From Candidatus Doudnabacteria bacterium (lineage in GTDB: Bacteria > Patescibacteriota > JAQUNI01), in assembly GCA_041644975.1 (NCBI GenBank), contig JBAZQX010000001.1, positions 39,274-103,273 of the forward strand: DNA of 64,000 nt, written 5' to 3'. Below the pieces are notes generated by a model that made no database searches, was not told the origin of the DNA, and was given only the letters and a program-made list of their open reading frames with translations. Shown here piece after piece: positions 21,240 through 55,815 of this stretch (position 1 is its first letter; each line of letters opens with the position of its first letter). A program made the position numbers and the translations under genes.

Positions 21240-23147
21240 CTATTTAAAATATTTGGTCAGCTTTTCTAGGGCGATAAAGAAACCCCGCCCTTCGCGTTGA
21301 TGACCCCGCCAAATTTCCGGAATCCAACCGTATTGATAGTCTTTAAATATTTTTTGGATTTTAGTCCAATCTATGTCCCCTTCCCCGATTTGCAATCCTT
21401 CCTCATCGGTGCCGTAGGCGTCAGAGATGTGCAGTTCGCGGACATAGGGTTTAATCCTTTGGAGTGCAGAATAAAAATCCTCCCCGATGAGATTGTAATA
21501 TAATTTTGCATGTGAAAGATCAAGAGTGCAATTAATGCGAGTCCGTTTGCAGAATTCCCGAATTTCATCCAGATCCACGAAGATGTTGTCTACCCATTGG
21601 CCGCCAAAATACCAAGGCCGGGGCGGCAGATTTTCAGGTAATAATTCCACGCCGCGACTATCTATTTTTTTTAGCGAATTTTCAAGGTTTTTCCAAAGCG
21701 TCCTTCGGCTTTTAATAGGGTCAATACTCATTCCGCCGGGATGAAAAACGATTTTGGGCTTAACAGGGACAAAATATTTTTTCATTTCCCTTGCTCGCTC
21801 TACGGTTTTTCGCATTATGGCAATGGCTTCGTCGCGTAATTCTTTTTCCGGGGAGCAAAGATCATTGATGGAGCGGAAATGATATTCGGGAGCGTGGATA
21901 TAAAGCGCGGCAGGATATTTTTGATTGGGTTTAAATTTGTATTCTAAATCTTTATCCGTAAAATGAAATTCTACCATTTTGGGATTCAAGGCCATCATTT
22001 GATCTAAATTGTGAAAACGTACTTTTAGCCCCCAGAAGGATTGAAAGTTTTTACTGAAATTAGATTGTTTCACTTTATGGATGTCGTTTTCTAAAAAGAG
22101 ATCATCTTTTTTGAAGTTTTTTTGCGCTCGTTTGCCAATTAGTGTATCCAGCAGTTGAGGCGACAAACCTTTGCCTGGGCTCTTAACGGCAATCATTTTG
22201 CGATGGATTATTTCCCCTTTTTTTATTTCTTCCGCGGCGACTAGGCTTTTTCCCAGAACCTCGCGGTTTAAGATTTCACCACGGCTCATATATTTTTTCC
22301 CGTCGCCCAAAGCTTGTTCCGTATAGCGGATATCGCGCACGAGGCGCTTAAAATCTTGGGCTTCTAGACTAGCGGCGTGATCTGGACCTTTCATAGAACG
22401 ATCCAGGGTTAAATGGCGTTCAATAATACTGGCCCCTAGTGTTGCGGCAACAATAGACATTGAAATACCCAGCTCATGACCGGAATAACCGACCGGGACA
22501 TTAAATTTTTGACGTAGGGTTTCTATAAAGCGCAGGTTTAATTTATCCCAGGGCGCAGGGTAAGTGGAAGAGCAATGCAGAAGCGCGAATTGGACCTTTT
22601 TCTTTTCCAAGAATCCTACTGTCTTTTCAATTTCATCTAAATAAGCCATTCCCGTTGCCACAATCATCGGTTTTTTGGTTGCCGCCACTTTTTCCAGAAG
22701 CGCAAAATTAGTAAGATCAGGGGACCCGATTTTGTATGCTGGGACCCGTAACTTTTCTAAAAATTCAGCGCTCTTAAGATCAAATGGCGTGCATAAAAAA
22801 GTAATTCCTTTCCGATCACAATATTTCTTTAAGAAAAAGAAATCTTCCTCCGTGAGTTCAAATTCGCGCAGCAAAGGAATCATGTATTGGAAATTTTGCT
22901 CGCCTAGGTTGGGGTTATCAAGTATTTCCTCGGTATAAATATGTTTCAGGTTTCTTTTTTGAAATTTAACCGCATCGGCCCCCGCACTAATCGCGACATC
23001 AACAAGTTGTTTGGCGATTTGCACCGAGCCATTATGATTGACCCCAATTTCGGCGACGATATAGCAAGGGTGTAGAGTGCCGATTTTTTTATTATCTATG
23101 GTAATCTCTTTGATCATAATATACTTCAAATCATAAATTCTAAGCAC
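21240..23147 (-). CDS. NeuB-family nonulosonic acid (sialic/legionaminic/pseudaminic) synthase fused to a SAF domain and a C-terminal xylose-isomerase-like TIM-barrel domain
   Basis: The N-terminus GTLHPCYIVAEIGVNHNGSVQIAKQLVDVAISAGADAVKFQKR is a NeuB signature. The SAF-like LVAAEEIKKGEII follows. The C-terminal ~280 aa has VEFHF / ELLPEN / LDLSHA / LHISD patterns of AP-endonuclease-2-type TIM barrels. The track start is a GTG; an internal ATG lies at ~23117. Confidence 0.7.
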   Translation of the reverse strand: MLRIYDLKYIMIKEITIDNKKIGTLHPCYIVAEIGVNHNGSVQIAKQLVDVAISAGADAVKFQKRNLKHIYTEEILDNPNLGEQNFQYMIPLLREFELTEEDFFFLKKYCDRKGITFLCTPFDLKSAEFLEKLRVPAYKIGSPDLTNFALLEKVAATKKPMIVATGMAYLDEIEKTVGFLEKKKVQFALLHCSSTYPAPWDKLNLRFIETLRQKFNVPVGYSGHELGISMSIVAATLGASIIERHLTLDRSMKGPDHAASLEAQDFKRLVRDIRYTEQALGDGKKYMSRGEILNREVLGKSLVAAEEIKKGEIIHRKMIAVKSPGKGLSPQLLDTLIGKRAQKNFKKDDLFLENDIHKVKQSNFSKNFQSFWGLKVRFHNLDQMMALNPKMVEFHFTDKDLEYKFKPNQKYPAALYIHAPEYHFRSINDLCSPEKELRDEAIAIMRKTVERAREMKKYFVPVKPKIVFHPGGMSIDPIKSRRTLWKNLENSLKKIDSRGVELLPENLPPRPWYFGGQWVDNIFVDLDEIREFCKRTRINCTLDLSHAKLYYNLIGEDFYSALQRIKPYVRELHISDAYGTDEEGLQIGEGDIDWTKIQKIFKDYQYGWIPEIWRGHQREGRGFFIALEKLTKYFK

Positions 23148-23149
23148 TA

Positions 23150-23260
23150 AATCCTAAACAATATCTAAATTCAGAATCTAAAATTCAAAACTATTTTGAA
23201 TTTAGAGCTTTAGATTTTGAATTTGTTTAGAATTTAGGATTTAGAATTTAGGGTTTCTTT
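23150..23260. repeat. intergenic palindrome of tandem ctaaat/tctaaa units (aatcctaaacaatatctaaattcagaatctaaaattcaaa ... tttgaatttagagctttagattttgaatttgtttagaatttaggattt)
   Basis: Direct reading. Confidence 0.65.
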
Positions 23261-23976
23261 CTTCTTTCCCTCATAATTTGCGTTGTGATTTTGAAATCCA
23301 AGATTGAATCTAAATCTACAGAGTCTTCAAGGCTCATTATCATAGTAACGAGTTTATTCCCGAAAACGCGGTTCTCTTGGAGAATAAATTTCGGTCTGGT
23401 GATATCAATGACCGCGTTTTGCCAATAAATTGGCTCTAATTTTTGCCTCGGCACATCCGGACCATATTTTAAACGAAATGATGTTTTGAGGTATGGTTCT
23501 AAAAATACTCCCTTTTTAATCCGCCACATTTTGTGAGGGTGTTTATCGCTTTGCGCTACGGTTTTTAAGCCATCAGCATTATAATCAATGACTATTTTAA
23601 TTGCTTGGTCTATTTGTTTCGCGGTGCGCAAGGGAGCGGTCGGTCTTAAATTAACAACCAAATCCGGTGCGTAATTTTCCTTATTTTTAAGCCACACTAA
23701 AGCATGGCGGTACCATTCAATGTCTTGGCTTGTGTCGCGGCTAAAACGGCTTGGACGCAGAAAAGGCACTTCGCAGCCATACTTTTTCGCCACAGCCGCG
23801 ATTTCCTTACTATCCGTGGAGCAAATCAAGCGGTCAATATATTTTGACCTTTTTGCTTCTTTGATGGCGTAATAAATAAGCGGTTTGCCGAGAAGGGAGT
23901 GGATATTCTTCTTGGGTACGGATTTAGACCCGCCGCGCGCTGGAATAATAGCTAAGATGTTCTCTTTTTTGTACAT
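23248..23976 (-). CDS. neuA: acylneuraminate (nonulosonic acid) cytidylyltransferase, CMP-sugar synthetase
   Basis: AIIPARGGSKSVPKKNI...GKPLIYYAI is the classic CMP-NeuAc/CMP-Kdo synthetase N-terminus. Confidence 0.75.
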   Translation of the reverse strand: MYKKENILAIIPARGGSKSVPKKNIHSLLGKPLIYYAIKEAKRSKYIDRLICSTDSKEIAAVAKKYGCEVPFLRPSRFSRDTSQDIEWYRHALVWLKNKENYAPDLVVNLRPTAPLRTAKQIDQAIKIVIDYNADGLKTVAQSDKHPHKMWRIKKGVFLEPYLKTSFRLKYGPDVPRQKLEPIYWQNAVIDITRPKFILQENRVFGNKLVTMIMSLEDSVDLDSILDFKITTQIMRERRKKP

Positions 23977-24167: not shown

Positions 24168-26645
24168 TCACTGGTTTTTCCTCTTCATTTTTCCAATAAG
24201 TAAAACACAAAGAATTAGGATGAGACTTGTAGCACTAATTAAAAGTCCCCCTTTAAACCAATTTTGAGGTTCATATTCCAGAGTAAGTTCATTATTTGTT
24301 AATCCTGCGGGGTCAATATAAAAGCCGTTAATTACGGAATATAAAGGAAAACTTTTAATTTCATTTTGGGGGTGAAGAAATATTTTTCGGAAATATTCTT
24401 TTAATCCATTTTGCTTTAAGTCTGTTTTGGGGGTTATGTGCCACCGCTGGTCATAACTTTCAGCAAAAGCAACTACAAAAGGATGATTGGGTTTATTCTG
24501 AAGATCTATTTTAATTTTAGTAGGGTTAATTTTTTGATATTGCAGATGAGGCAGGGAAGGAGTTTCTTTCTCTTCTATTTTTTCCTGTTTTTCTTCCAAG
24601 AATAAAGCATCAATAATATTGATGTCGCTTTCACGGAAGAGTTTAGAATTACTAATTTCAAACCAGGAGTCCTTTTCAGGGTTTGTTTTTGCTTTAAATT
24701 CTATTTTTATATAGTAGGTATTATCAGGAGTGCCAAAAAAGTGGGAAATCTTTTGTGGTTCTAGGTTGTTCTTTCGGTTTTCCATAAAATATTCCACTTT
24801 AAAGGCAGTACGTTGGGTTTGGAGGTCATAGTCTTTGCCATAGAATAAGACACGGGCATCTAAATTTGCTAAATTTTGACCACATAGTTGATACTCTAGA
24901 TAAAAACCCTGATTTTCTTCTACTTGAATTGCATTGGTAATCAGTCTACCTTCTCTATTTGGATTCAGACCATTTTTGGGAATATCAACCATGATACTTT
25001 GAGGTATAGAGCTTTGTTTAGAGGTATTTGATCCCTTGGGGGATTCCTCATTATTACTAAATTTTAGATTTTCAGGATCCAAAATAAAAAAGTTCTTTGT
25101 GGTTAGAAAATTACGCTCTTCTACATTTGCGAGGAGAGAAATCTGATTGTCTGCGGTAAAATATTCTTCACCAATTTGATACCATTTGATTAAGTCCAAG
25201 AAGTAATGCTCAAGGCTATATTGTTTTTTGCCGAAGGTTAGATTTAAAATCCGTGGATTTTCTTTAGCCAGATTTTCATAAGAGATTATTTCTTCTTTTT
25301 GATTTTGGAGTTTATTGATTTGATCGGGATCATTTTTAAATCTGATGAGAACAGTGTATTCATCCCCTTTGGGCAGCTTTAAATTTAAGGGTTCTGTCAT
25401 TTCTGTGGGGTTAATTTTTTGGAGATAAGTTACCGGGGTTTGGGTGATGATTTCTTGAGCTTGCTTTTTGTAACTTTGATATTTTTCCTCTGGCACTAGT
25501 GCTAAAAGATTAACCGCATTAAAACCCACTAGGTTTTGAATAATCAAAAAATGTTTACCTTTTGCGACTTTGCCTAAAGGTATTGTGTTAGTTGTAAATT
25601 TATTGTTAAGATCTAAAGTTTGAATTATTTTTTCCTTATTGCCTTTTTTGATTTTTAATTTGCCCCCATGATTGTTCTGGAAATAACGTACTGTGAGAAT
25701 ATAATCTGTATCTTCAGAGATATAAAATGGGACTTTAATTTCCATATCTTTATCCTCGGAATAAACTAAGCCTTTCCCATAATCGAAATCCCAGTTTGAA
25801 ACTTTGAGTTGGTCAATTACGCGATGCCATTCACCATGCAGAGGTTCTTCTGTGGAAGCTTTTTGCCATTCCCCTATTTTTTCATTGGTTGAGGGAGCGA
25901 TTTCAACAAGATATTGGTTCTCAATCAAGGAAAATATTAAATCTTCAAAGTTTGCATTGTTAAAAATGATATTTTGGAATGTTTGGTTTTTAAAACTATG
26001 CATCAAACCTGGTTCCTGATTTAGGAAAATTAAGCCATTTTGGACAGGGTCAAAATCAGTTTTGGAATTGAGAAGATCAAGAGTTTCCATCCCTCCGATG
26101 ACAGGGATGACTTTTTTTGGTATCCAGACAAGGGGTGCATAATTTTTATTCTCAAAGACTTCTAAATATTCTTCCTGTTTAATTTTTTTTAATCCCGGAT
26201 CTCGTTGCAGGCTTGCTAATAAGCTTGGGCTGTATTCACCCGGTAAATCCTTGCGCAAGATAAGGTATTTGGTATTTAAGATGTCAAAAAATTTGTTGAT
26301 GTTAGGAAAATAGCCAGTGATGCTTTGGAGGAAGAGAAAGTGTAACTTTGAATAAACTGTCTCTGGTCTGATGTTTGGTTTAGCCGAAGAGAGAGTAATA
26401 AAGTCATTTACCTCATGGTCGCGCGCCCAGTCCAAGATTGCAGCGTTATATTGCGCCGGCAGCCAGATAACCTTAAATTCTTCTTCTTGATGAGCCAGCC
26501 AAGTATTTAATCGGAAGAAATCCAATGGAATTTCTATAGGCACGAGATTATGGAAGAGAATTCTATCAGCGGCGCCAAAGAAGTAAATCCAGAAGAACAA
26601 AAGAAATAAACTAAGAATAAGATATAGAGAATATTTTTTAAACAT
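24168..26645 (-). CDS. YfhO-family protein, extracytoplasmic C-terminal part (N-terminal signal anchor, ~770-aa exported region, C-terminal TM plus lysine-rich tail)
   Basis: The C-terminal block FAESYDQRW..VINGFYID..LTLEYEPQ..GLLIS..TM..KKK parallels the C-termini of the 826-aa and 877-aa YfhO-like paralogs in this window. Confidence 0.5.
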   Translation of the reverse strand: MFKKYSLYLILSLFLLFFWIYFFGAADRILFHNLVPIEIPLDFFRLNTWLAHQEEEFKVIWLPAQYNAAILDWARDHEVNDFITLSSAKPNIRPETVYSKLHFLFLQSITGYFPNINKFFDILNTKYLILRKDLPGEYSPSLLASLQRDPGLKKIKQEEYLEVFENKNYAPLVWIPKKVIPVIGGMETLDLLNSKTDFDPVQNGLIFLNQEPGLMHSFKNQTFQNIIFNNANFEDLIFSLIENQYLVEIAPSTNEKIGEWQKASTEEPLHGEWHRVIDQLKVSNWDFDYGKGLVYSEDKDMEIKVPFYISEDTDYILTVRYFQNNHGGKLKIKKGNKEKIIQTLDLNNKFTTNTIPLGKVAKGKHFLIIQNLVGFNAVNLLALVPEEKYQSYKKQAQEIITQTPVTYLQKINPTEMTEPLNLKLPKGDEYTVLIRFKNDPDQINKLQNQKEEIISYENLAKENPRILNLTFGKKQYSLEHYFLDLIKWYQIGEEYFTADNQISLLANVEERNFLTTKNFFILDPENLKFSNNEESPKGSNTSKQSSIPQSIMVDIPKNGLNPNREGRLITNAIQVEENQGFYLEYQLCGQNLANLDARVLFYGKDYDLQTQRTAFKVEYFMENRKNNLEPQKISHFFGTPDNTYYIKIEFKAKTNPEKDSWFEISNSKLFRESDINIIDALFLEEKQEKIEEKETPSLPHLQYQKINPTKIKIDLQNKPNHPFVVAFAESYDQRWHITPKTDLKQNGLKEYFRKIFLHPQNEIKSFPLYSVINGFYIDPAGLTNNELTLEYEPQNWFKGGLLISATSLILILCVLLIGKMKRKNQ

Positions 26646-28326
26646 ATGTGTTATTTTTAACTTTTTGCAACTTCTTTTTCATTTTTCTAATCTTGGAATT
26701 TAATTTTTCAATTTTGAGCTTTTTTTTCTGTGCTTTTTTAGATAAAAAAAGATCAATTTTTTGCCTAAATTCATCTTTAAAGGCCACTCTTGAAAATAAA
26801 AAAGCCAATAAAAAACTATAAGAAAAAGCAAGCAAGCCGTTTATTCGGGAGGATTCCCGAAAGAGCCAGCCAAAATTTTTAAAATAGGGAATGTCAAAAA
26901 GAATTTTTTGATATAAAGTGTAATGCCAAATCGGCATCGTAGACAGAATTGTTGCGAAGACCCCCAAGAGAGAGAAAAAGACTGTGTATTTGTTTCGGAA
27001 AGATGGAAAGAGAGGCAGGAAGAGGAGCAAAGGAAGGATAAAAATTAATTTTCGGAAAATAAAATTTATAATCAAACTGTTTGTCTCTTCACCATTTAGA
27101 GAGAGGGTGAAAAATAAAGTTTTCAGGGGTTCTTGGGGTTTTTCAAAATAGTCTGATGTAAGCATATAATCAGGTGCGTTAGGTTTATTTTCCGAGAGGC
27201 TAATTTGCAAGTAGGGATACAGCCAGTACGCTCCTAGAGTTAAAAAAAATAAAACAAAGATTAAAAGGTAACCCAAATTTCGCGCTAACATTTTGAAGAT
27301 CAGCTTGCAATTTTGTTTTAGGAAAGATTTTTGCACCCAGATCGCGCTTTCTATTAAGATGAAAATTCCCAGCATAATAAAGTTATAAACTAAATAATGT
27401 GGAGAGAAGGAGATAAAATTGAAAAGGAGCGCTAAAATCAGTAGTAGTAGTATTTTTTTTTGCCTTTTAAATTTTAAAAAGACAAGTAGAACCAAGGGTG
27501 TGAGAGTATAACCAATGAAATGGTAGAAGTGGAAGATCCGATTCAGGGCGTAAGGGTTAAATAAATAGAAGGCAGTGGCTAGCAGAGAGGCTAAGTTAAT
27601 ATGTTGCTTTTCTCTTATGACGGCTTGAAAAATCGTTTGCATTAAGAAATAACTAGAGAAGGCGCCACAGAGTAAGATTTCTAAGAGAATAAGTTTAATG
27701 GTTAAATCGCTGGGTAGATTTAGAAGCTGGGTAAATATAGTATTAAACAGACTGATGGGAAAAATATTAGGAGCCAAGGGCCGGTTAAAACTGCCATAAT
27801 CGTTCCATAAAAACCAGACATTCCCCAAAACAGTTTGATTATTTATTGGGAAGTTGAGGTCTCCTGCTTCAATGTATCCTTTTGTAACTAGGACTTTATG
27901 AAAAGGGATCAAGATTAGAAAAATGAGGATGAAAATAGTTATACTGCGTTTATCATCTATTTTTTTAAAGATATTTATAGGCAGACGTTTTTTTTTGCTT
28001 AAGAATATCTTTAATTGAGTAAATATAGTGACGAATAAAAAGAGTAAAGCATAGGCGGCAGCTATATTTGCTAAGTATTCATCTTTTAAGATTGAAAAGA
28101 TTGCTGTGAACACGAGAAGTATCAGTCCGCAGATCAGAGGAATTTTATCCGAAATATTTAGAATTAAGAAGGTTAGAAGGGTACCCCAAAAAAGAAAAGC
28201 ATATAAAGAAGCATTTAAAAGAAAGAGAACAAGAAAGGTTAAAAAAAGCCAGGCTAAATAATAAATTTGAGGCTGGTTTTTTTTGAAGTTGACAATTCCA
28301 TTTTTCAATCTTGAAATAACACCCAT
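26638..28326 (-). CDS. YfhO-family protein, N-terminal polytopic membrane part; 8-nt overlap in a different frame with 24168..26645 (a split or frameshifted gene is possible)
   Basis: It has ~12 TM helices and an overall YfhO-like layout. ATG and TAA are arranged as ATGTTTAA at the junction. Confidence 0.5.
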   Translation of the reverse strand: MGVISRLKNGIVNFKKNQPQIYYLAWLFLTFLVLFLLNASLYAFLFWGTLLTFLILNISDKIPLICGLILLVFTAIFSILKDEYLANIAAAYALLFLFVTIFTQLKIFLSKKKRLPINIFKKIDDKRSITIFILIFLILIPFHKVLVTKGYIEAGDLNFPINNQTVLGNVWFLWNDYGSFNRPLAPNIFPISLFNTIFTQLLNLPSDLTIKLILLEILLCGAFSSYFLMQTIFQAVIREKQHINLASLLATAFYLFNPYALNRIFHFYHFIGYTLTPLVLLVFLKFKRQKKILLLLILALLFNFISFSPHYLVYNFIMLGIFILIESAIWVQKSFLKQNCKLIFKMLARNLGYLLIFVLFFLTLGAYWLYPYLQISLSENKPNAPDYMLTSDYFEKPQEPLKTLFFTLSLNGEETNSLIINFIFRKLIFILPLLLFLPLFPSFRNKYTVFFSLLGVFATILSTMPIWHYTLYQKILFDIPYFKNFGWLFRESSRINGLLAFSYSFLLAFLFSRVAFKDEFRQKIDLFLSKKAQKKKLKIEKLNSKIRKMKKKLQKVKNNTYV

Positions 28327-28343: not shown

Positions 28344-29801
28344 TTAAGAAAAAATTTCTTTTAAAATGCGGCCGTCTAAATCTTTGGGTAATGGGATGTC
28401 TAAGAGGTGAAGAATTGTTGGTGCAAGATCAAGAATATTTACTTTTTCCAAGACTCTGGAAGTAGAATTGATGTGAGGGCCGGTGATAAGGAAGATGCCA
28501 TTCCTTTTGTGAGTAGCTGACCAACCTTCTTGCGAGTCGCTTAAGATTTGGCCTTGACCTGTTAATCCTGAAATTTCGTATCCTTCTTCCGGCCAGAGAA
28601 TGAAATCAGGAGAATTTTGACAAGGCCCATTATAAATTTGATTTGCCTCCATTATTCTATGTAGAATGACTTTTCCGTGAAATTTCACTTTTTGAAGTTT
28701 GGAAGACAGTTCTTTCTTTAAAGATTGAATTTCTTCGGATGAAAGAATGTTTTGGTTAAAGTAAAGGGGCCCTTCGCTGGTAGCGACAGCTTTGGTTTTT
28801 TCCCAATCCACAATTTGTTCATTTAAACTTTTTCCTGCCTTCATTGAGATTACCTTTAGATTTTTATTTTTCATTCTTTTTTTTGCAAATTCCAGAAGAC
28901 CTAAAAATTTGACCATTTTGCCGATTCTTTCTGCTGAAATTCCCAATTTAAGCAATAAATGGGATAATTTGTCATTTCTTAAGCTAAGATACCCGTTTTT
29001 GCGAAGCCATTCATTGATGAAAAATGTGGCTTTGAGGCTGGTAAAGCCATGATCAGAAAAGAGAATTGTGTAGGTTTGTTGGGGTTCAGGCACTAGTTTA
29101 AGAAGCTCCCCGATTTTTTGGTCAATAAACTGCCAAAAGTTTTGGATTGTGTTTTGAAGGGGATGGTGCGGTTTATCTTGATATTTCCAGAAAAAATGTT
29201 GCAGATCATCAATCATAAAAAAAGTGAACTGAAAGAAATCCCAATCAGAGCGGGTGATGAATTTTTTAGCCGCAGCCACTTTTTTTTCTGTAATAGTATA
29301 TATTTCTTGAATTAATTTTTCTTTTTCCAGTCGGAAATTGGCTTCAGGAAAGAATTGATAATCAGGAAAAAGTGATTGCAACTCTGGAGGGTAGAAGGCT
29401 TTTTCAGGAAAGGCCACTATTGGTCCTGAGATCATAGCACCATTAATTTTTTTCGCTGGGTAAGTGAGGGGCATATTGAGAACATAAGATCGCTTGCCGT
29501 TTTCTGATAATAAATCCCAAATTTCTTTCTCTTTGACGGTTAGGCTTGTATTTAAAACAAATTTTTTGTTTTTAATGTCAACATTTTGCCACCAGTACAT
29601 TCCTAGTTTTCCTGGGTTTTTGCCTGTGGAATAGCATTTCCAAGCTGGTGCTGTGACACTGGGAAGGCAACTTTCTAAATTTGCCCTTACTCCTTGTCGT
29701 AACAGTTTATTTAAGTTTTCCAGCCCCCCTTTTTTGATTAAGGGGTTAATGACGTTCCAACTCCCCCCATCTATGCCGATGACTAAAACTTTTTTTTGCA
29801 T
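28344..29801 (-). CDS. alkaline-phosphatase-superfamily enzyme (type I phosphodiesterase / nucleotide pyrophosphatase family), cytoplasmic
   Basis: VLVIGIDGGSW and CLPSVTAPAW (Thr nucleophile context) are typical of PF01663-type enzymes. There is no signal peptide and no CxPxR formylglycine sulfatase motif. Confidence 0.6.
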   Translation of the reverse strand: MQKKVLVIGIDGGSWNVINPLIKKGGLENLNKLLRQGVRANLESCLPSVTAPAWKCYSTGKNPGKLGMYWWQNVDIKNKKFVLNTSLTVKEKEIWDLLSENGKRSYVLNMPLTYPAKKINGAMISGPIVAFPEKAFYPPELQSLFPDYQFFPEANFRLEKEKLIQEIYTITEKKVAAAKKFITRSDWDFFQFTFFMIDDLQHFFWKYQDKPHHPLQNTIQNFWQFIDQKIGELLKLVPEPQQTYTILFSDHGFTSLKATFFINEWLRKNGYLSLRNDKLSHLLLKLGISAERIGKMVKFLGLLEFAKKRMKNKNLKVISMKAGKSLNEQIVDWEKTKAVATSEGPLYFNQNILSSEEIQSLKKELSSKLQKVKFHGKVILHRIMEANQIYNGPCQNSPDFILWPEEGYEISGLTGQGQILSDSQEGWSATHKRNGIFLITGPHINSTSRVLEKVNILDLAPTILHLLDIPLPKDLDGRILKEIFS

Positions 29802-29811
29802 AAACAGAAAA

Positions 29812-29850
29812 AATGTTGCATGGGTTAAAGCAACAAAAAATTAAGAGGTT
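29812..29850 (-). terminator. candidate rho-independent terminator after cysN (minus-strand stem tgttgc/gcaaca followed by TTTTTTCTG)
   Basis: The hairpin plus U-run read on the minus strand directly after the cysN stop. Confidence 0.35.
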
Positions 29851-29915
29851 TTATTATATTAAAATTTTCAAAAAAATCAACTAAAATTTTGTTCGTTTCA
29901 CCTTTCCTCAACTTT

Positions 29916-31205
29916 TTAGTTGGAAATTATTCCTCCTGCCACCACATCACAGTTACGGACTAAAACAAAGCGACCTAATTCAGGTAAGATGTTGAATTTT
30001 TCAATCACCAATGGATTATTTGCTTGGATTATTACCTCTCCGATTTCTGTCTCCATAAGATGCAGAGCCTCTTCTTCAATGATTTTTAAAGTAGAGGAGT
30101 CTATTCTTTTAATAATTTTCACAATTTTCGCTTTCACTTCCTGGGTAGCGCAATGCAAGATTATTGTTTCATCTCTTTTTAGTTTTTCTTTAGACATCCA
30201 TAAAATACTGGCCTTAAATTCTTGGACGATTTGCGGTTTATTTAGGGGCCCAGAGATTACTTCTCCTCTTTCAATAAATAATGGATCGGTGATAGTAATA
30301 CCAATATTCTGACCTGCGGAGGCTTGTTGTAAATCCTTTTGTAGGAAAATTTCAATAGTTTTTACAGTACTTTCTTTATTGGAAAGAAGGAAAGTAATTT
30401 TATCTCCTATTTGAATTTTTCCTGCTTCTACGCGGCCCGCAATGATTCTTTTATCCCCTACCTTATAAACATCCTGCACAAGATAACGCAATGACTTTTT
30501 TATGGGTAAGGCGCTAGCCTTGAGGTTACCTAAAGCCTCTACAACAGTTGGTCCTTGGTACCAGTGCATTTTGGGGGATAAGGAAACAATATTATCACCC
30601 TCCTTTGCGGAAATAGGGATAATGTAATTAAGATTGAGATTGATTTTTCTTAAAAACGTCTTAAAGCTTTTTTTAATTTCTTTGAATCTTTCAGAGCTAT
30701 AATTCACCATATCCATTTTGTTAATAAGGAGAATAATTTGCTTCAAACCCAGAAGACTTAAGATATAGGCATGCCTTTGGGTTTGTTCTTGAATTCCTTC
30801 TTTAGCGTCAATAATAATCATCGCCGCCTCGGCTTGGGAGGCTCCAGTGACCATATTCTTAATAAATTCTTTGTGACCGGGCGCATCAATAATAACATAA
30901 TTTCTTTTTTTAGTTTTGAAAAAGAATTGAGTGGTGTCAATGGTAATCCCTTGCTCCCGCTCTTCTTGAAGGTGATCAAGAATGAAAGCTAGTTCCAGTG
31001 GTTTTCCAAGTTTGTCACAAGTTTTTTTTATTTCCTCAAGATATCCTTCCGAAAGGGAATTTGTGTCATATAAAAGTCTGCCTATTAAGGTAGATTTGCC
31101 ATGATCCACATGTCCTACGATGATAATTTTTAAATTTTCTCGCTCCATAAATAAAGTTAACCTTAAATTACGAAGCACATCGTCTGTGAGCGAGGGATCC
31201 GCCAT
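29916..31205 (-). CDS. cysN: sulfate adenylyltransferase subunit 1 (GTPase)
   Basis: [37 protein letters not shown] and INKMD match CysN specifically. There is no fused APS-kinase domain (429 aa). Confidence 0.8.
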
Positions 31206-31230
31206 GGGCAGACTCCTCGCTAATAGACGA
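31180..31230 (-). promoter_or_regulatory. 14/16-bp inverted repeat (tcgtctgtgagcgagg / cctcgctaatagacga) bracketing the cysN start codon and Shine-Dalgarno GAGGAG; a possible translational control hairpin
   Basis: Direct reading. The 19-nt loop contains the ATG (31203-31205). The SD lies partly in the 5' stem arm. Confidence 0.4.
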
Positions 31231-31348
31231 AAAGGGAGTTTCGTAATTCATAGAAGTTAATTATTTTTTGTTTTTTGCATTCAATATATGAGCGCCTTAA
31301 ACCACCTTTTTTTTCCTTGTAAAAAAGCATTTTAAAAAGTGGGCGGTT

Positions 31349-32149
31349 TCACATATAGCCAAGGGAGCGCAATTTTTGCATCATATAAGCAGTTTCTTTA
31401 TCTTGAGCTCTACCTGATCGTTCGGCGATTTTAGTAGTTTCTAGCTCCGCCACAATCTCTGCGAGCGTAGAGGCATTGGAATCAATAGGCATACAACAAG
31501 GCTCACAGCCAATACTGCGGTAACGTTTTCCTTCTTTTGCAAAATATAATTTGACGATTGGGATATTTTCTCTTTTTATATAAGCCCAAATGTCTTTTTC
31601 TGTCCAATGTAAGAGAGGGTGCACCCGTATATGTTCCGATTCCTCTTTTTTGTTCTTATATTGATCCCAAAGTTCAGGGGGTTGATTTTTGTAATCCCAG
31701 GTGAATTCCTGATCGCGAGGGGAAAAATATCTTTCTTTGGCTCGGATTCCATGTTCGTCGCGTCGGATTCCCAAAAGAAGAGCGTTCAATTTATGTTCTG
31801 CCATTATTTGCTTTAGCGCATTGGTTTTAAGTTCAGTGCAGCATTCTAGTTTGCCCTTTCCCGGGCAGACACCGCGCCCTAATGCTTCTTTATTTTGGCT
31901 AATAATTAAGCGCAGGTTCCACTCCAGAGCATAATGATCTCGGAATTCATAGATTTCTTTAAATTTAAAGCTGGTATCAATATGAATTACAGGAAAAGGA
32001 ACCTCGCCATAAAAAGCCTTACGGCAAAGCCAAATTAAGGTAGTGGAATCTTTTCCGATTGACCAAAGAGCGGCAATATCATGAAATTGTTTGTAAGCCT
32101 CACGGATGATATAAATACTCTTAGATTCTAATTCATCAAGATGTTGCAT
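31349..32149 (-). CDS. cysD: sulfate adenylyltransferase subunit 2
   Basis: The PAPS-reductase-fold SIGKDSTTLIWL P-loop and its overall length and pattern match CysD. Confidence 0.85.
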   Translation of the reverse strand: MQHLDELESKSIYIIREAYKQFHDIAALWSIGKDSTTLIWLCRKAFYGEVPFPVIHIDTSFKFKEIYEFRDHYALEWNLRLIISQNKEALGRGVCPGKGKLECCTELKTNALKQIMAEHKLNALLLGIRRDEHGIRAKERYFSPRDQEFTWDYKNQPPELWDQYKNKKEESEHIRVHPLLHWTEKDIWAYIKRENIPIVKLYFAKEGKRYRSIGCEPCCMPIDSNASTLAEIVAELETTKIAERSGRAQDKETAYMMQKLRSLGYM

Positions 32150-32197: not shown

Positions 32198-34831
32198 TTA
32201 TGGTTTTATTATATCATTTTTTACTTTTTTGGCTAGGATCCAGACAAGATAGCCGCAGGAGATGATAAAGAAGATACTAGATATAGTAAGACCAAGGTAG
32301 AATAATCTTTGGGGCCAGAATTCTACAGTTAGTGCAAAGTCATAACTACCATCCTGATTTTTAATGCAATTGCTTGGCTGCTCGCAGATTTTTTGAACGT
32401 CAAGCCACCAGGAATTAGCATAACCATTAACAATAAAATGTTGATCTTGAGCGAGGGGCTTCCTTCCCCAAGTTTCCCAGAAGGGTCCCCCTTTCAAATT
32501 TTCGTTTTGGATTGTATCTTGATAATTTTTAGAGATAAAAGCAATCTTATATTTTTCTAAATGATCTAGTTCCTTTTTTTCACTATTCAAAAATTGATAA
32601 TATTTGATCTTTTTTTCCCGACCGTCACCAAGGGTGGAAACCCAACCTTTTTCAATAAAGTGTGAGACTTCTTCTTTTTGCGCTTGATTTTCCTCGTTAC
32701 CCTCTAGAATTTTATAATCTTGAAGCAGTGAATCAAAGGAGTTGTTGTTAGAATAAGACAAATCTATATTTCTTTTGATTTGATATATTTTCCAATCTTT
32801 AGAAAAAGTTTCACTTAAAATGAGGGGAAAATTCTCTCTCGCTTTATGAATAAAAACAATATATTTGGTGGGATTTATCTTTTTGAATTCCAGGATTGGT
32901 TTTTCATTAATTCGCGTGGGTAAAGAACTGGTTTTTTGAGATTGTTCTTTGCTATCCGCAAGATAAATCGCGGTTGGTTTCAGGAGGTTTTGGGAGGATA
33001 GAACTTCGGGCAGATCTTTGGTGAATTGTGACGAAACCTTAATCTCTTCAGGAACATATAAATGAGGTAGAAAATAAACAGAGGAAACTTCATAGAGCTC
33101 AAGGGGGCCAAAAGATTGTACCAGATTAATGTCTTTTTCTTTTTCAAGATTTTCCTTAATTTCGCGCGGAGAATCCGAATTTTCATAAAATTGATCATCA
33201 ACATCATTTTCCAGAATTATGTATTGCATGTTAAAAAAGCCTGCAAGTTTCAATAAGGTATTGAAAAAGTCTTTCTGTTGTCTAATGCTGTAGAGCATTT
33301 GGTAAATAGGGTCAGAGATGCTTTTTTGGTAGGTGGCAAAGAATTTTTCTCCTAGATAGTAATATAAAGGATCTACTCCCTGATAATTCCATTTATAGGG
33401 AGTGAAATAGGTCCATTGCATAGGTAAGGCATAGGCGCGGAAAGCCATCTGTTTTTTATTTAAATAGGTGCTAATTTCGCGATAATAGAGAGGAATTGAT
33501 GTTTTGTTCGTGGCCAGGATGCCACTTTTATAATCTGGCAAGACTTGACCTTGCCAGAAAGGAAGAGCACACAGATGGATTACAAAAAGAGTTAGGAGAG
33601 CAAAAGCAAAGGCGTACTTCAATTTTATTTTTTCCATAATCCTATGGATTGCAATCCCTAGCAAGAGGCTAAAGGCAAAAATAAAGATCATGCCGATTTT
33701 ATCCAGAGGATTACGGAACATTGAAAAGGTCTCAAAGTGACTGAATAAAAATTTATAGATTGATCCTAAAGGTGGGTTGGGGCCATAGAGTAGGGCAAAA
33801 CTGACTAGACTAAGAATGCCGAAGATGAGCGTATATTTTTTATATTTATTCTTAGCGAAAGCAGAATAAGCCAAAATCGGGATTATGAATCCTAAAAGGA
33901 TGAAGAATGGCTGTTCATAAAGTGAACCGTAGGGATAGTAGAGATATCCTTTAAACTTTCCCCAAAATCCCCAGTGTCCCAAAAAGCGAAGACCATCGGC
34001 CATTTTGTAAAAAGAGTTAACCACGGCGATATGTTTGAGATTAGTGTCCGCCATTTGCGCAATCTCTTCTTGTTCATTAAAGAAAGCAGCGGTGTAGGGC
34101 AAGATAATGAGGGACCAGGTAAGAAATAAGGAGCCGCTTAAGAGAAGGAAATGCTGTATTTGTTTTTTTAGATCAACCTTCTTCCTTTGCTTGGATAGCA
34201 AAAGATTCATTAAAAAATAATAGACTACGATGCCAAAGATTAGGAATAAATAAACTGGATTATCTGCCGCGGGTGAGGCGAGAAAAGCGGTCAGCACTAG
34301 GAGGGCGCAGTCTTTTTTGGTAGGACGTTTTAAGATGCGGATGCAGAAGAGCAGAATGAGAGGCAAAAAGCCATAAGCGAAGAGCACCATTGCGCGTGGC
34401 CAAAGGAACAAAAAAGAAAAAACATTAAACATATAAAGATTTGCCGCCAAGAAGGCAGCCAATTCCCTTAATCGTCCTTTCAAAATATGCCTCATCAAAA
34501 TAAAGAAGGCAAAACCCGCGGTTAAAAGCCAGTAGGAAAAAAGTAACCGTTCAATTTCTAGAAGCGGTAGATTGATTTTATGGAGAAGATAAATCGGTAA
34601 TTGGTAAGCGGGCAGTAGAGCTGTACCTCGATCTTGAGCATAGCCCAGATAGACAGGATTCCAGGTAAAGATTCTGGTGCGCAGGGCATCCTCTGGAGAA
34701 AAAGTAAAAGCAAAATCTCCGATAGAAAGCCATAGTGTGTTTAACCAAAAAAAAGGCGCTAGTGCCTCCAAGAAGATTAAAATGAGGAATATTTTAGTTT
34801 GGTGTTTTTGAAGATATTGGTGAATGATCAT
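32198..34831 (-). CDS. YfhO-family GT-C-like membrane protein (N-terminal ~560-aa polytopic domain, extracytoplasmic domain, C-terminal TM)
   Basis: The architecture and the C-terminal block LSETFSKDW..IVNGYANSWWLD..LTVEFWPQ..TM are shared with the other YfhO-like paralogs. Confidence 0.6.
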   Translation of the reverse strand: MIIHQYLQKHQTKIFLILIFLEALAPFFWLNTLWLSIGDFAFTFSPEDALRTRIFTWNPVYLGYAQDRGTALLPAYQLPIYLLHKINLPLLEIERLLFSYWLLTAGFAFFILMRHILKGRLRELAAFLAANLYMFNVFSFLFLWPRAMVLFAYGFLPLILLFCIRILKRPTKKDCALLVLTAFLASPAADNPVYLFLIFGIVVYYFLMNLLLSKQRKKVDLKKQIQHFLLLSGSLFLTWSLIILPYTAAFFNEQEEIAQMADTNLKHIAVVNSFYKMADGLRFLGHWGFWGKFKGYLYYPYGSLYEQPFFILLGFIIPILAYSAFAKNKYKKYTLIFGILSLVSFALLYGPNPPLGSIYKFLFSHFETFSMFRNPLDKIGMIFIFAFSLLLGIAIHRIMEKIKLKYAFAFALLTLFVIHLCALPFWQGQVLPDYKSGILATNKTSIPLYYREISTYLNKKQMAFRAYALPMQWTYFTPYKWNYQGVDPLYYYLGEKFFATYQKSISDPIYQMLYSIRQQKDFFNTLLKLAGFFNMQYIILENDVDDQFYENSDSPREIKENLEKEKDINLVQSFGPLELYEVSSVYFLPHLYVPEEIKVSSQFTKDLPEVLSSQNLLKPTAIYLADSKEQSQKTSSLPTRINEKPILEFKKINPTKYIVFIHKARENFPLILSETFSKDWKIYQIKRNIDLSYSNNNSFDSLLQDYKILEGNEENQAQKEEVSHFIEKGWVSTLGDGREKKIKYYQFLNSEKKELDHLEKYKIAFISKNYQDTIQNENLKGGPFWETWGRKPLAQDQHFIVNGYANSWWLDVQKICEQPSNCIKNQDGSYDFALTVEFWPQRLFYLGLTISSIFFIISCGYLVWILAKKVKNDIIKP

Positions 34832-37907: not shown

Positions 37908-39017
37908 TTATTTATTGATAATTTCAAAGGTTTCGGACCAGATTTCTAAACCTTCCCTGAATTTTTGTAAAAATGTGATCTCTTCGGGACCGAATAACTT
38001 ATCATTACTGAACTCTTGATTAAGATCTCTGACAATTTCTTTGAAGCAACCATGATAGTCTTGTTGGGTGAGTCTAATTTTGCGTAAAATATCCGTAAAG
38101 CGATCCGTAAGTTTGCTTCCCTCTCGTTCTTTATCTAAGTCTTTCCAAATATCATGAGGATTCCTTATTTGACGTACCAGAGGATAACCACAGGTAACAA
38201 AATGTCCTAGATGATCAGCAACTTTTTTCACAATATAGCTTGCCCAGATATCGTCATATCTTCCTATATAAGGACTTAAGAAATAAGCAGGTAATACTTC
38301 GCGGGAGAGTGCTGTATTTTGGGAGTTAAATGGAGACCAAGTTCCTTTGCCCAAAGCAGCCGTAGGCGCGTATTCTGCTTTCATCCATGTGGCTCGTACG
38401 GGATAATTTAGGCGGCTTACTGCATCCACATCAGGATCGTCTAGCCATAAACCAGCATTTACTACTACCTTACCTTTAATTTTTTCCTTAATGAAGTTAG
38501 ATTCCCCTGCCCTACCTTTTTGAGATGAGGGATAACCGCGATGATAGAAACAATTATTGTTAGCTTCTTGAAGGAACTCACAAATGTTGAGCCAGCCTGT
38601 TTTTGAACTATAAGATATGAGTTCTCTTTCCATTCCTATAATACTATGGCTACCCACAAAATCTTGTTCAGAGATTACAAGGTTATCATCATCAATGGTA
38701 ATAATAATATCTGCCCCGCGTTCATAGGCAAAGAGCAGACCTATATTACGTCTTTGGATAGAGTTAAAAGGTAAGTGCTCCCAGAGTTTAGGAAAGCGCT
38801 CAAGATAATTAAATTGGATATCAATGTCTTGATAATAGACGGGATAGTTAAATTTGGTTTGTAGCATAGAACAAAATTTGTGGGTATCCGGTGGACTTTT
38901 TTTATCGCCAATAACTACAAAGAATAGATCTTGATGTCCGTAGTCTTGAGCGTTTTTTGCATAGTCTTTGAGTAAGGTGGGAATATTGATGGTTGTGGTA
39001 ATAATTGCAGTTTTCAT
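37908..39017 (-). CDS. putative GT-A nucleotide-diphospho-sugar transferase, RGP/GT75-like
   Basis: It has the N-terminal IITTTINIP and IIITIDDDN (a DDD motif as in reversibly glycosylated polypeptides). The call is weak. Confidence 0.3.
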   Translation of the reverse strand: MKTAIITTTINIPTLLKDYAKNAQDYGHQDLFFVVIGDKKSPPDTHKFCSMLQTKFNYPVYYQDIDIQFNYLERFPKLWEHLPFNSIQRRNIGLLFAYERGADIIITIDDDNLVISEQDFVGSHSIIGMERELISYSSKTGWLNICEFLQEANNNCFYHRGYPSSQKGRAGESNFIKEKIKGKVVVNAGLWLDDPDVDAVSRLNYPVRATWMKAEYAPTAALGKGTWSPFNSQNTALSREVLPAYFLSPYIGRYDDIWASYIVKKVADHLGHFVTCGYPLVRQIRNPHDIWKDLDKEREGSKLTDRFTDILRKIRLTQQDYHGCFKEIVRDLNQEFSNDKLFGPEEITFLQKFREGLEIWSETFEIINK

Positions 39018-47751: not shown

Positions 47752-48927
47752 TTAAGATATATTGTGATATAGGTTTTGATAAGCCTTCAGAATAAGGCGT
47801 GCAGAGGCATCACTTAATTTGTTAACATGTTTTAGTCCTTTTTGCGCCATTTGTTGAAGCAAGAGAGGATTTTTATAGGCAAGATTAATTTTGTCAGCTA
47901 GAGCTTTTTCTTTTGTTTTGACAATAAAAGCAAAATTCTTGTTTAATGTATAAGGTTTTGCCCCGCGATTGGTGACAATTATTGGTGTGCCACACGCTAA
48001 GGCCTCATTTATGGCACGTGACATATCTTCATGATAGCGTGCCGGATAACAAAAGATATCTGCTGCATTATAATACCATGATAACTGATTGTAAGGGATA
48101 TTGCAGACAAAATTAAAATTCTTCAGTTTTTTCTTAGCATTTTTAATTTGGGGCAGAAGCGGACCCTCATCACCTACTATGAAAAAATTAATTTTCTGCA
48201 ATCTCTTTGCAAGTTTAATAATTAAATCCGCTCCTTTTAAATAGATTAAGCGTCCAATAAAAATGACAGTGAATTTATGGAGGGGCCAGTTTAATTTTTG
48301 ACGCGCCGCATTTTGATTAAGGGGCTGAAAACGTTTTAAGTTAACCCAATGCACAAAGATTTGAATTTTAGAAGGATTAACGCCGATCGTCTCTAATTCT
48401 TTTTTGGAATCCTGCGATTGGGCTAAAATAAGATTATGAGCCGCAAATACTTTTTGTAATAGTCGGGCAAAAAAGGAGCGGGGGCTGAAATTATATATGG
48501 AGTGGGTGCTGGTAATGAGCTTTTTATCCTTAAAAATTTTTTTGAGAATATAACCAATAAAGGCAGCGTTTAAACCATGGCTGTGGATTATATCAATTCG
48601 TTTCCTATTTTTCAACATAAATAAAAAAGAGCGTAAAAGAAGATAGGGGGTGATATATAAGAAGAGTAAGATTTTATGGTTTTCTAAAAGGTGAAAAAGA
48701 TTAAAACCAGGCCAACGGAAGCGATAAATTTCCACTTCACCTCTTTTTTCGTGGGGAGGTCCGGTAGTCCGATTAGTCAGTGGTTGATAGGTCAGAACGT
48801 ACACTTTAAAACTATTTGCATCTAGATAATCACATAAATCATCCAAATGTGTTTCCACCCCGCCCACATTGGGACTAAAACAAGGAGTAAGAATGAGAAT
48901 ATTTTTGCCTCCGTTTTGACATCGCAT
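47752..48927 (-). CDS. GT4-family glycosyltransferase
   Basis: It has the GT-B layout, FIGRLIYLKGADLI and the C-terminal INEALACGTPIIVT. Confidence 0.65.
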   Translation of the reverse strand: MRCQNGGKNILILTPCFSPNVGGVETHLDDLCDYLDANSFKVYVLTYQPLTNRTTGPPHEKRGEVEIYRFRWPGFNLFHLLENHKILLFLYITPYLLLRSFLFMLKNRKRIDIIHSHGLNAAFIGYILKKIFKDKKLITSTHSIYNFSPRSFFARLLQKVFAAHNLILAQSQDSKKELETIGVNPSKIQIFVHWVNLKRFQPLNQNAARQKLNWPLHKFTVIFIGRLIYLKGADLIIKLAKRLQKINFFIVGDEGPLLPQIKNAKKKLKNFNFVCNIPYNQLSWYYNAADIFCYPARYHEDMSRAINEALACGTPIIVTNRGAKPYTLNKNFAFIVKTKEKALADKINLAYKNPLLLQQMAQKGLKHVNKLSDASARLILKAYQNLYHNIS

Positions 48928-48937
48928 AATAATGAGA

Positions 48938-49798
48938 CTAATTGTACTGTTGATCTTTTCGGATAATGGAAATCATTGGCGAATAAAAGCCCATTTTACC
49001 TATTATTTTGAGTAAACCGCGTAATTGGAAGAAATCTAAAAATTTAATTACTTTTACTAAAGCTGGGCTGCGGCTACAGAAATCATTTTGATTTATTAGT
49101 GCCAGCCATTCCTCTAAAGATTTATTGGTACAGATTAATCCTTGTTTTTTCACTTCTTTTTTCAAAGAATGAGGGGTAATAAAGTTTAGAGTATGAAAGA
49201 AGTTCGGGTTTCTTCTTCGTAATTTTAAATACCACCTATTAATTATTCTTGGCAACCAAGGGATGAAAAAAAGATAATAGATATTGCAATACATCACCAT
49301 ATAGTTAATATTGATACAGTAGATTGCACCATTATCCTTGAGTACCCGTTTAAGCTCTTTCCAAAACAAATCTCGGTCTTGCACATAGTCAGCCACATAA
49401 TGCACATTGATAAGGTCAAAAAAGGAGTCTGGGAAAGGCAGATAACCCTTGTTTACTTTCTGAATTTTTTGCTCGTCTTGATTATTATGTCTTAATAAAT
49501 TTTGGGAAATGCCAATAAGTTCATCATCCGTTTCATAGCCATAGCAGTCAAGCCCTCTTTTAAGACAATAAGATATAAAATATCCAAAGCCGCTCCCCGC
49601 ATCAAGGATTTTGTCTTCTTTTTGACGCGGTAAATATCGCGCCATTTGCTGGTATTGTTTTTTCGCTTCTTCAAAATTGTAACCAGTGTCTAATAGCTTT
49701 TGGATGTTTAAATGGGGTGGTAATACTCCTTCATACATTCTCTTAAGATAATGGTACATTCTTTTTCTTAACTTTTGCTCCTGTCTTTTTCTTTCCAT
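48938..49798 (-). CDS. class I SAM-dependent methyltransferase
   Basis: It has ILDAGSGFGYF (GxGxG motif I) and VLKDNGAIY (motif III-like). Confidence 0.6.
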   Translation of the reverse strand: MERKRQEQKLRKRMYHYLKRMYEGVLPPHLNIQKLLDTGYNFEEAKKQYQQMARYLPRQKEDKILDAGSGFGYFISYCLKRGLDCYGYETDDELIGISQNLLRHNNQDEQKIQKVNKGYLPFPDSFFDLINVHYVADYVQDRDLFWKELKRVLKDNGAIYCININYMVMYCNIYYLFFIPWLPRIINRWYLKLRRRNPNFFHTLNFITPHSLKKEVKKQGLICTNKSLEEWLALINQNDFCSRSPALVKVIKFLDFFQLRGLLKIIGKMGFYSPMISIIRKDQQYN

Positions 49799-49968
49799 AT
49801 TTATTTTTTACCTTCCTCCGTTGAAAACTACAGGCGTAAGGTAAGTGGAGCTTACGCGTCTTCTATTTTTGGTTAATATGAAATAAAAACTCGTGTTTTT
49901 TAGAAGAGGAAATAGGTATAGCTATATGCTCTGTTTTAAGCAATTTTCTATTTTTATAAGTAAGGGGG

Positions 49969-55745: not shown

Positions 55746-55815
55746 GGGTTTCGCCCTTACTGAAACCCCATTCGGAGTAGATGCTTATGAGCCGTGAAGT
55801 CGTGGAGGGCTTCAC
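55746..55815. repeat. conserved two-hairpin motif, copy 3 (gggtttcgcccttactgaaaccc ... gatgcttatgagccgtgaagtcgtggagggcttcac), overlapping the 3' end of the 55757..56968 CDS
   Basis: The last ~18 codons (EALHDFTAHKHLLRMGFQ) and the stop of the upstream gene are encoded by the motif. Confidence 0.55.

Follow-up and report, generated by a model that had tools for sequence, protein, structure and literature searches.

Canonical clusters for sulfated capsules combine cysDNC with classical sulfotransferases, as in Vibrio sp. KMM 8419 (PMC11641403), and a 2024 review recognises four sulfotransferase classes, three of which (polysaccharide, cytosolic and tyrosylprotein) depend on 3'-phosphoadenosine 5'-phosphosulfate (PAPS) while one is PAPS-independent (PMC11625862). 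Two other described systems lie close to the locus considered here. In Halobacterium salinarum, Agl30 (VNG1056C) and Agl31 (VNG1057C) sulfate the lipid-linked N-glycan, on the evidence of deletions and of expression in Haloferax volcanii; both are sulfatase-like members of the alkaline phosphatase (AlkP) superfamily, one membrane-bound and Agl31 soluble/cytosolic, and the donor is never mentioned (Zaretsky et al., mBio 2025; PMC11980604). A second precedent is an archaeal cluster of CopG, ATP sulfurylase, DHH 3'-phosphoadenosine 5'-phosphate (pAp) phosphatase, type I phosphodiesterase/nucleotide pyrophosphatase (NPP) and adenosine 5'-phosphosulfate (APS) kinase genes with TauE adjacent, found in P. 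yayanosii (PYCH_17520-17560), T. onnurineus, F. placidus, A. boonei, A. pernix and I. hospitalis (Jin et al., 2021; PMC8268124). P. yayanosii has no identifiable sulfotransferase, PAPS reductase or sulfite-forming enzyme (PMC8268124). Here we describe a 64-kb stretch of a Candidatus Doudnabacteria metagenome-assembled genome (MAG) of the candidate phyla radiation (CPR, Patescibacteria), called the window below and used as the frame for all coordinates, that carries cysD, cysN and an AlkP-superfamily gene in tandem. We consider it probable, with some reserve, that this triad is a glycan sulfation module in which the AlkP protein acts as the sulfotransferase, a reading based on gene-neighbourhood conservation, fold and the precedent of Agl30 and Agl31.

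The three genes are minus-strand open reading frames (ORFs) that together fill positions 28344-32149 exactly. The first, cysD (31349..32149, minus strand), encodes a short-form sulfate adenylyltransferase small subunit of 266 residues with an ATP-pyrophosphatase fold, whose PP-loop SIGKDS at residues 30-35 aligns with the SIGKDS of E. coli CysD. It matches PF01507 (E=4e-41) and NCBIfam NF003587 (352 bits, cutoff 195), and falls under the TIGR02039 cutoff (263 bits against 396.6) because of a deletion of about 29 residues relative to E. coli CysD, to which it is 40% identical. Closer relatives, at 62-78% identity, are found in both domains, among them CysD proteins of DPANN archaea, Omnitrophota and Planctomycetota. 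The second gene, cysN (29916..31205, minus strand), starts 143 bp downstream of cysD, as befits a paired subunit, and encodes the 429-residue GTPase subunit of sulfate adenylyltransferase. Its product passes the TIGR02034 cutoff (369.4 bits against 336.1), matches GTP_EFTU at 7e-51, is 36.5% identical to residues 28-432 of E. coli CysN and retains intact G1, G3 and G4 GTPase motifs, including NKMD. No APS-kinase domain is present in CysN, which is unfused and, of the 632 positions of the bifunctional CysN-CysC model, covers only 21-430. The identity to E. coli CysD, together with the co-location of TauE permeases in relatives, suggests that CysD converts ATP and sulfate to APS and pyrophosphate (PPi). 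In E. coli CysDN, coupling to GTP hydrolysis shifts the very unfavourable equilibrium of APS formation.

The third gene (28344..29801, minus strand) encodes a 485-residue AlkP-superfamily protein, a candidate glycan sulfotransferase of predicted NPP fold with Thr50 as the likely nucleophile. It matches PF01663 (E=6e-35; 121.8 bits, cutoff 23) and gives no match to PF00884 at E<=1e-3; the formylglycine motif [CS]xPxR is absent from its sequence. A cytoplasmic location is predicted because the protein has no signal peptide, hydrophobic N-terminus or transmembrane segment. An AlphaFold2 model built from a 63-sequence alignment (predicted local distance difference test score 91.8) finds its best PDB matches by Foldseek in Xanthomonas (Xac) NPP and ENPP1-7, with E~3e-18, a target-normalised TM-score of about 0.7 and 13-15% identity; a PDB sequence search returned no match, and NPPs were reached only by profile search and Foldseek. 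The profile alignment places D11 (in GIDGGSW), T50 (in SVTAPAW), D250-H251 and the C-terminal His onto the nucleophile and metal ligands of NPPs. Indeed, the bimetal ligand set is complete (D11, D250, H251; D198, H202, H431), and D11, T50, H202, D250 and H251 are invariant among the 63 homologues. The family also has an invariant motif of its own, T-x-P-x-W-K-C-Y-S-T-G-K-N-P-G-K, and the window protein carries an additional insertion of roughly 100-150 residues relative to NPPs. About 1000 homologues at 35-43% identity occur in Chloroflexota, Asgard archaea, Thermoplasmata, Methanoperedens and others. On the model and alignments the protein looks catalytically competent and cytoplasmic, NPP-like yet far from characterised NPPs.

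These results bear on an original prediction for this stretch, made from its letters alone. It had called CysD and CysN clear, with an unfused CysN of 429 residues, and described an AlkP protein that contains GIDGGSW and SVTAPAW and lacks both CxPxR and a signal peptide; all of this holds. It had weighed PF01663 against PF00884, and only the former is matched. It had also allowed that the protein might group firmly with hydrolytic nucleotide pyrophosphatases, which is not the case, since it is far from the solved NPPs and belongs to an uncharacterised family.

The association of these genes extends well beyond this genome. One genome per species was scanned with the window CysD, which yielded 60 loci that were annotated by tblastn, phmmer and a locally built AlkP hidden Markov model (HMM); loci with at least 2.5 kb available downstream were taken as informative. 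The order short CysD (266 residues), CysN and PF01663 protein recurs in glycan clusters of three distant organisms, namely a Chloroflexota MAG, a Diapherotrites/Iainarchaeum MAG and the cultured Calderihabitans maritimus, the first of which also shares B12-binding radical SAM (B12-rSAM), methyltransferase and GT4 glycosyltransferase genes with the window. A PF01663-like gene is present in 30 of the 46 loci with a CysD at least 60% identical to ours, 25 times within 500 bp of cysDN, and cysC is present in none of them (0/46); the informative subset has AlkP in 25/33 loci and cysC in 0/33. These loci stem from bacteria (Patescibacteria, Omnitrophota, Planctomycetota, Acidobacteriota, a Blautia and Bdellovibrionota) as well as archaea (Woesearchaeota, Altiarchaeota, Iainarchaeota, Nitrososphaerota and Methanosarcinales), and the cysDN-AlkP linkage spans at least 12 phylum-level lineages of the two domains. 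By contrast, the sister CysD clade (48-55% identity; Alphaproteobacteria and Bdellovibrionales) has cysC fused or adjacent in 7/7 informative loci and AlkP in 0/7. AlkP and cysC are mutually exclusive beside cysDN. The pairing across phyla suggests that the AlkP protein belongs to an unrecognised family that sulfates surface glycans. Many loci carry 2-4 divergent AlkP paralogues (L008, L037, L045 and L005, where L numbers denote surveyed loci), and the family behaves like tailoring enzymes, both in these multiple paralogues and in its GT2 and GT4 neighbours.

Several further features of these loci concern the same genes. In 11-13 loci cysD and cysN have a TauE/SafE-family permease gene between them or next to them, inserted between the two in Woesearchaeota, Methanosarcinales and Planctomycetota (e.g. 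L010:995-1819 and L018:10829-11671), and a CopG/RHH-like gene is found upstream of cysD in three loci (e.g. L014:64-390); the window contains neither a TauE-type permease nor a CopG gene. Proteins with TPR repeats and an N-terminal SGNH/GDSL-like region are the fourth commonest neighbours of the cysDN-AlkP module (L045:5142-6611 and 15 further cysDN loci, mostly of Omnitrophota). Within the AlkP family, metal-site-1 residues 198 and 431 covary perfectly in the 63-sequence alignment, with D198 and H431 in 38 sequences, N198 and N431 in 25 and mixed pairs in none, which suggests a mono-metal sublineage. A wider set of AlkP proteins shows the N-H-N combination in 32 of 164, and its nucleophile is Thr 102 times and Ser 56 times; of the members inspected that directly adjoin sulfate-activation genes, nearly all possess a complete D-H-H set. 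Three minimal forms of 238-271 residues show a gap in the column of the third ligand. Such minimal AlkP proteins are encoded directly after cysN at L002:17346-18161, L006:12211-12927, L010:3071-3787 and L028:3069-3785; they match PF01663 weakly and are without the cap-like insertion of about 150 residues.

The gene content of the window bears on an alternative in which cysDN is the only copy in the genome and serves ordinary assimilatory sulfate activation, feeding cysC, cysH and cysI located elsewhere, so that its position in a glycan island is incidental. Both CysD and CysN are bona fide by HMM, and metagenomic surveys have taken the sat, cysC and cysN genes of CPR and DPANN organisms as a sign that sulfate is reduced to sulfite (PMC7906910). 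Searches of the 64-kb window with E. coli CysC, CysH and CysI gave no match by tblastn or by phmmer, and none of these genes was found beside any of the 46 close cysD relatives. CPR bacteria, moreover, have minimal biosynthetic capacity. The surroundings also argue for a role in glycan synthesis: Pfam scans of all distinct, non-nested ORFs with 100 residues or more (53 in the window) mark the whole window as one large glycan island, with a WecA-like initiator, a Wzx-like flippase, many GT4 and GT2 genes, several GT-C-like polytopic proteins, nucleotide-sugar enzymes, NeuB with a CMP-sugar synthetase, a TagF-like enzyme and a B12-rSAM enzyme with a methyltransferase. The cassette occurs in glycan clusters of distant phyla and is here inserted between glycan genes. 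We therefore regard the assimilatory explanation as very improbable, and the cysDN without APS kinase or reductase in a glycan island that had been predicted is borne out.

The same scans found no APS_kinase, no Sulfotransfer family and no second PAPS_reduct among the 53 ORFs; nor does the window contain Sat or the DHH pAp phosphatase. A 5'-phosphosulfate-binding (5'-PSB)-like motif (K[STAC]G[TS][TSW]), which the original prediction had proposed as a check, occurs in no window ORF of at least 80 residues. A hidden classical PAPS-dependent sulfotransferase in the window was considered and rejected, there being no Pfam match and no motif, and the AlkP model having an AlkP/NPP fold.

We further examined the family from the AlkP side, by scanning metagenomes with the AlkP alignment, which gave 80 loci. 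GT2 or GT4 genes are present in 32 of the 46 AlkP-anchored loci that span at least 8 kb. Some of these loci connect the family with a different sulfate-activation system. The gene order in L077 and L147 is AlkP, Sat, DHH, AlkP, APS kinase, NTP transferase and AlkP, and in L133 it is Sat, AlkP, CysC, TauE and AlkP, followed by GT2 and two more AlkP genes. The AlkP proteins of these Sat/CysC loci are 30-38% identical to the window protein over the full length, the DHH protein is likely a pAp phosphatase, and no sulfotransferase Pfam match is found among the called genes of L147. Because AlkP adjoins cysDN and also the non-homologous Sat, CysC, DHH and TauE set, the family is tied to two evolutionarily independent sulfate-activation systems as well as to glycan synthesis.

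This double linkage could also be explained if the AlkP protein were an accessory hydrolase of PPi, excess APS or PAPS, or pAp-type nucleotides that pulls or regulates CysDN or Sat, with the true sulfotransferase, and possibly cysC, encoded elsewhere. Jin et al. speculated that the NPP-like PYCH_17550 degrades PPi (PMC8268124), and among solved structures the nearest folds are those of hydrolytic, AMP-binding NPPs. Against this, two to four divergent paralogues per locus are unexpected for a housekeeping hydrolase, most AlkP relatives are found in glycan clusters that have no gene for sulfate activation close by, and neither the window nor the called genes of L077 and L147 offer another sulfotransferase candidate. 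Hydrolysis of APS beside a GTP-driven APS synthase would moreover amount to a futile cycle. We know of no pyrophosphatase activity among NPP-type enzymes, and cells already own dedicated pyrophosphatases. An accessory hydrolase is thus an unlikely identity for this protein.

The genes on either side of the triad bear on how it came to lie in the island. Upstream lies a gene for an 877-residue polytopic membrane protein (32198..34831, minus strand) with 11 transmembrane-like segments and a faint GT-C/AftD-like match, beyond which 34915-36855 matches PMT_2. Downstream, starting 17 bp past the AlkP gene, is a gene for a 562-residue polytopic protein (26638..28326, minus strand) with 12 transmembrane-like segments, followed with an 8-bp overlap by a gene for an 825-residue protein (24168..26645, minus strand) that has no Pfam or NCBIfam match. 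The 562-residue protein belongs to a rare family, with 16 homologues among 5.8 billion proteins, the named ones all from CPR or Nanoarchaeota; it is weakly GT-C-like, and its AlphaFold2 model (mean score 70.7) resembles STT3/PglB only weakly (Foldseek E~0.08, TM-score ~0.35). The neighbours had been predicted to be YfhO-like GT-C proteins: the immediate ones are indeed polytopic with weak GT-C evidence, and the only PF09586 YfhO match lies at 57094-59574. In related CPR loci (L148 and L149) the 877-, 562- and 825-like genes are contiguous, the last 46-49% identical to its window equivalent, and cysD, cysN and AlkP are absent; in L149 the homologues of the 877- and 562-residue proteins directly adjoin each other. 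The triad sits exactly between the 877- and 562-residue genes of the window and, the flanking genes being contiguous in the related loci, behaves as an inserted cassette. The pair of 562- and 825-residue genes is conserved and in CPR glycan loci is preceded by a polytopic protein of about 870 residues. The 562-residue protein was also considered as the missing sulfate permease and rejected, since it is found without cysDN in related loci and its model is GT-C-like, if weakly, and not that of a transporter.

Behaviour as a single cassette also bears on a further alternative, in which the AlkP protein tailors glycans as a phosphoryl or phosphodiester transferase, a hydrolase or a mutase and has nothing to do with sulfate, with cysDN as mere co-cargo and sulfation carried out by another protein. 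Most family members do lie in glycan clusters without sulfate genes, the JGI label of the homologues is 'predicted AlkP superfamily phosphohydrolase/phosphomutase', and the window encodes several function-unknown proteins. Of the latter, the 562- and 825-residue neighbours occur without cysDN in related loci. A phosphate-related role leaves unexplained the transfer of cysD, cysN and AlkP as one unit, the interleaving of AlkP genes with Sat, CysC, DHH and TauE, the 25 loci with AlkP within 500 bp of cysDN, and the exclusivity of AlkP and cysC. We judge this explanation improbable.

In the sulfation module as we envisage it, CysD would adenylylate sulfate to APS, with CysN GTP hydrolysis driving the reaction, by homology to E. 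coli CysDN. The NPP-fold AlkP protein would then bind the AMP-sulfate nucleotide at its bimetal centre and move the sulfuryl group onto a sugar hydroxyl in a glycan intermediate that the island makes in the cytoplasm, a step proposed from gene association, fold and precedent. The acceptor would most likely be a lipid-linked oligosaccharide at the cytoplasmic face, or else a nucleotide sugar; transfer could proceed directly or through a sulfo-Thr50 intermediate, akin to the covalent Thr/Ser adducts that other transferases of the AlkP superfamily form, and the product would be a sulfated surface glycan. The cassette would be self-contained and horizontally mobile.

Several points weigh against this reading. 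The evidence for the AlkP protein as a sulfotransferase is associative throughout. Known NPPs attack phosphorus rather than sulfur and would just hydrolyse APS, and their promiscuous sulfatase activity is tiny. The precedent of Agl30 and Agl31 comes by analogy from the sulfatase-like branch of the superfamily, not from PF01663. Fisher tests of the AlkP and cysC counts in close versus sister CysD loci give p = 3e-4 and 5e-8, values that overstate the significance because the loci are phylogenetically non-independent and many are from Omnitrophota. Eight informative short-CysD loci have no AlkP gene within 8-10 kb. From the AlkP side, only 2 of the 80 loci have cysDN within 10 kb, both with TauE, and any sulfate-activation gene is present in just 7 of the 80 (Sat in 4, CysC in 3 and CysDN in 2, overlapping); such loose linkage is expected if tailoring enzymes draw on a single common donor pathway in each genome. 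Finally, the window contains no recognisable sulfate permease, and the absence of cysC and of classical sulfotransferases is established for the 64-kb window only.

The nature of the donor is a separate matter. The original prediction had proposed sulfuryl transfer from APS; dedication of cysDN to glycan sulfation and the candidacy of the AlkP protein are strongly and independently supported by the conserved neighbourhood, whereas the APS-kinase loci of the relatives at 30-38% identity point to PAPS there. PAPS is probably the donor for those relatives whose loci combine Sat, APS kinase and pAp phosphatase. For AlkP proteins linked to cysDN, APS as the direct donor is plausible, because neither an APS kinase nor a pAp phosphatase is ever part of a cysDN module, whereas Sat modules have both. 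There is also an energetic logic to this, in that Sat depends on the kinase to pull its reaction forward and CysDN can draw on GTP. For a cassette with no APS kinase, such as that of the window, APS is the most likely donor, although cysC could be encoded elsewhere in these genomes. In its fullest form, the proposal would be that cytoplasmic AlkP proteins of PF01663/COG3379 type are a widespread glycan sulfotransferase family whose cysDN-linked members use APS directly, without APS kinase, PAPS or pAp recycling, the GTP-driven CysDN replacing the kinase as thermodynamic pull; we advance this only tentatively and consider it doubtful as a whole.

If the sulfation reading is correct, it would name the sulfotransferase missing from the conserved archaeal sulfate-activation cluster and supply a use for the cysDN or sat product in many CPR, DPANN, Omnitrophota and Planctomycetota genomes. 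Sulfur-cycle genes of ultra-small symbionts would then be reread as cell-surface sulfation rather than sulfate reduction, and a second, NPP-type branch would join the AlkP-superfamily sulfotransferases. Were APS the donor, the module would offer a PAPS-independent route, practical for making sulfated glycans without PAPS regeneration; direct use of APS would make it the first O-sulfotransferase system in nature that depends on APS, and a minimal sulfation pathway of two enzymes, well fitted to reduced CPR and DPANN genomes. The sulfation claim is directly testable with three small soluble proteins.

Other features of the window were noted as well. GC content is 0.33-0.38 in the central glycan island (24000-58000) and 0.40-0.44 in the flanks, which fits horizontal acquisition. 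At 21240-23976, a fusion gene joins a NeuB-type nonulosonic acid synthase with a TIM-barrel domain (AP_endonuc_2) of xylose-isomerase-like type and adjoins a CMP-sugar cytidylyltransferase gene, which indicates a pathway for a sialic-acid-like sugar in a CPR bacterium. An RGP/STELLO-like glycosyltransferase (37908-39017; RGP is the plant 'reversibly glycosylated polypeptide' family), a TagF-like CDP-glycerol glycerophosphotransferase (55757-56968) and a TagD-like cytidylyltransferase (7284-7784) are also encoded, and a glycerol-phosphate-decorated polymer is probably made by the island as well. At 47752-51546, genes for a B12-binding radical SAM enzyme, a class I methyltransferase and a GT4 enzyme are syntenic with the Chloroflexota locus L002:1-2861; B12-rSAM genes also lie near cysDN in five loci, and these findings may point to C- or O-methylation of the same glycan. 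An Rfam scan of the window gave 0 matches, and promoter and terminator counts were at chance level, with no operon signal.

Compared with known systems, the locus shares with cysDN(C)/NodPQ and NodH/Stf clusters a second or dedicated cysDN inside a polysaccharide cluster, a hallmark of sulfated glycans. These canonical clusters always include cysC and Sulfotransfer-family enzymes, whereas the window has neither and carries a PF01663 enzyme in their place. With NPPs (Xanthomonas NPP 2GSN and ENPP1-7), which bind AMP-containing substrates, the AlkP protein shares the predicted fold, the Thr nucleophile and the Asp/His ligands of two metal sites; NPPs, however, are secreted or ectoenzymes, and the window protein is predicted to be cytoplasmic. 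LtaS and EptA/MCR-1, with which the original prediction had drawn an analogy, use a covalent Thr intermediate to carry a group from an activated donor onto a polymer of the cell envelope. They differ in belonging to the PF00884 branch, in being membrane-anchored with extracytoplasmic catalytic domains, and in having a single metal site and lipid donors, none of which applies to the window protein.

The archaeal Sat cluster is closer, as an NPP-like PF01663 gene is embedded there among sulfate-activation genes in the way that the window gene is with cysDN. Its order Sat-DHH-NPP-CysC is also that of the metagenomic L077 and L147, CopG and TauE accompany both this cluster in Thermococcales and the cysDN version in relatives, and the window protein can be likened to PYCH_17550 by description and through the L077/L147 relatives. 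The difference lies in activation, which in the archaeal cluster combines a homo-oligomeric Sat with APS kinase and pAp phosphatase (the PAPS route) and in the window uses GTP-coupled CysDN only. A literature search found no description linking PF01663 proteins or COG3379 to sulfotransfer, cysDN or an APS-dependent sulfotransferase.

Agl30 and Agl31 provide the functional likeness, since an AlkP-like core, a place in a glycan-assembly cluster and action at the cytoplasmic face all have counterparts in the window protein as predicted. The two act on the lipid-linked oligosaccharide before flipping, their paralogues differ in positional specificity, and neither has a classical sulfotransferase fold (PMC11980604). 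They belong to the arylsulfatase family, with sulfatases 5G2U and 6HHM as nearest structures, whereas the window protein is PF01663/NPP-like with a Thr nucleophile. No cysDN linkage is reported for them (PMC11980604), and they are set apart from the window protein by Pfam assignment and description. On the sulfation reading, the window enzyme is best classed as a new, NPP-type and cysDN-coupled form of the recently recognised AlkP-superfamily glycan sulfotransferases.

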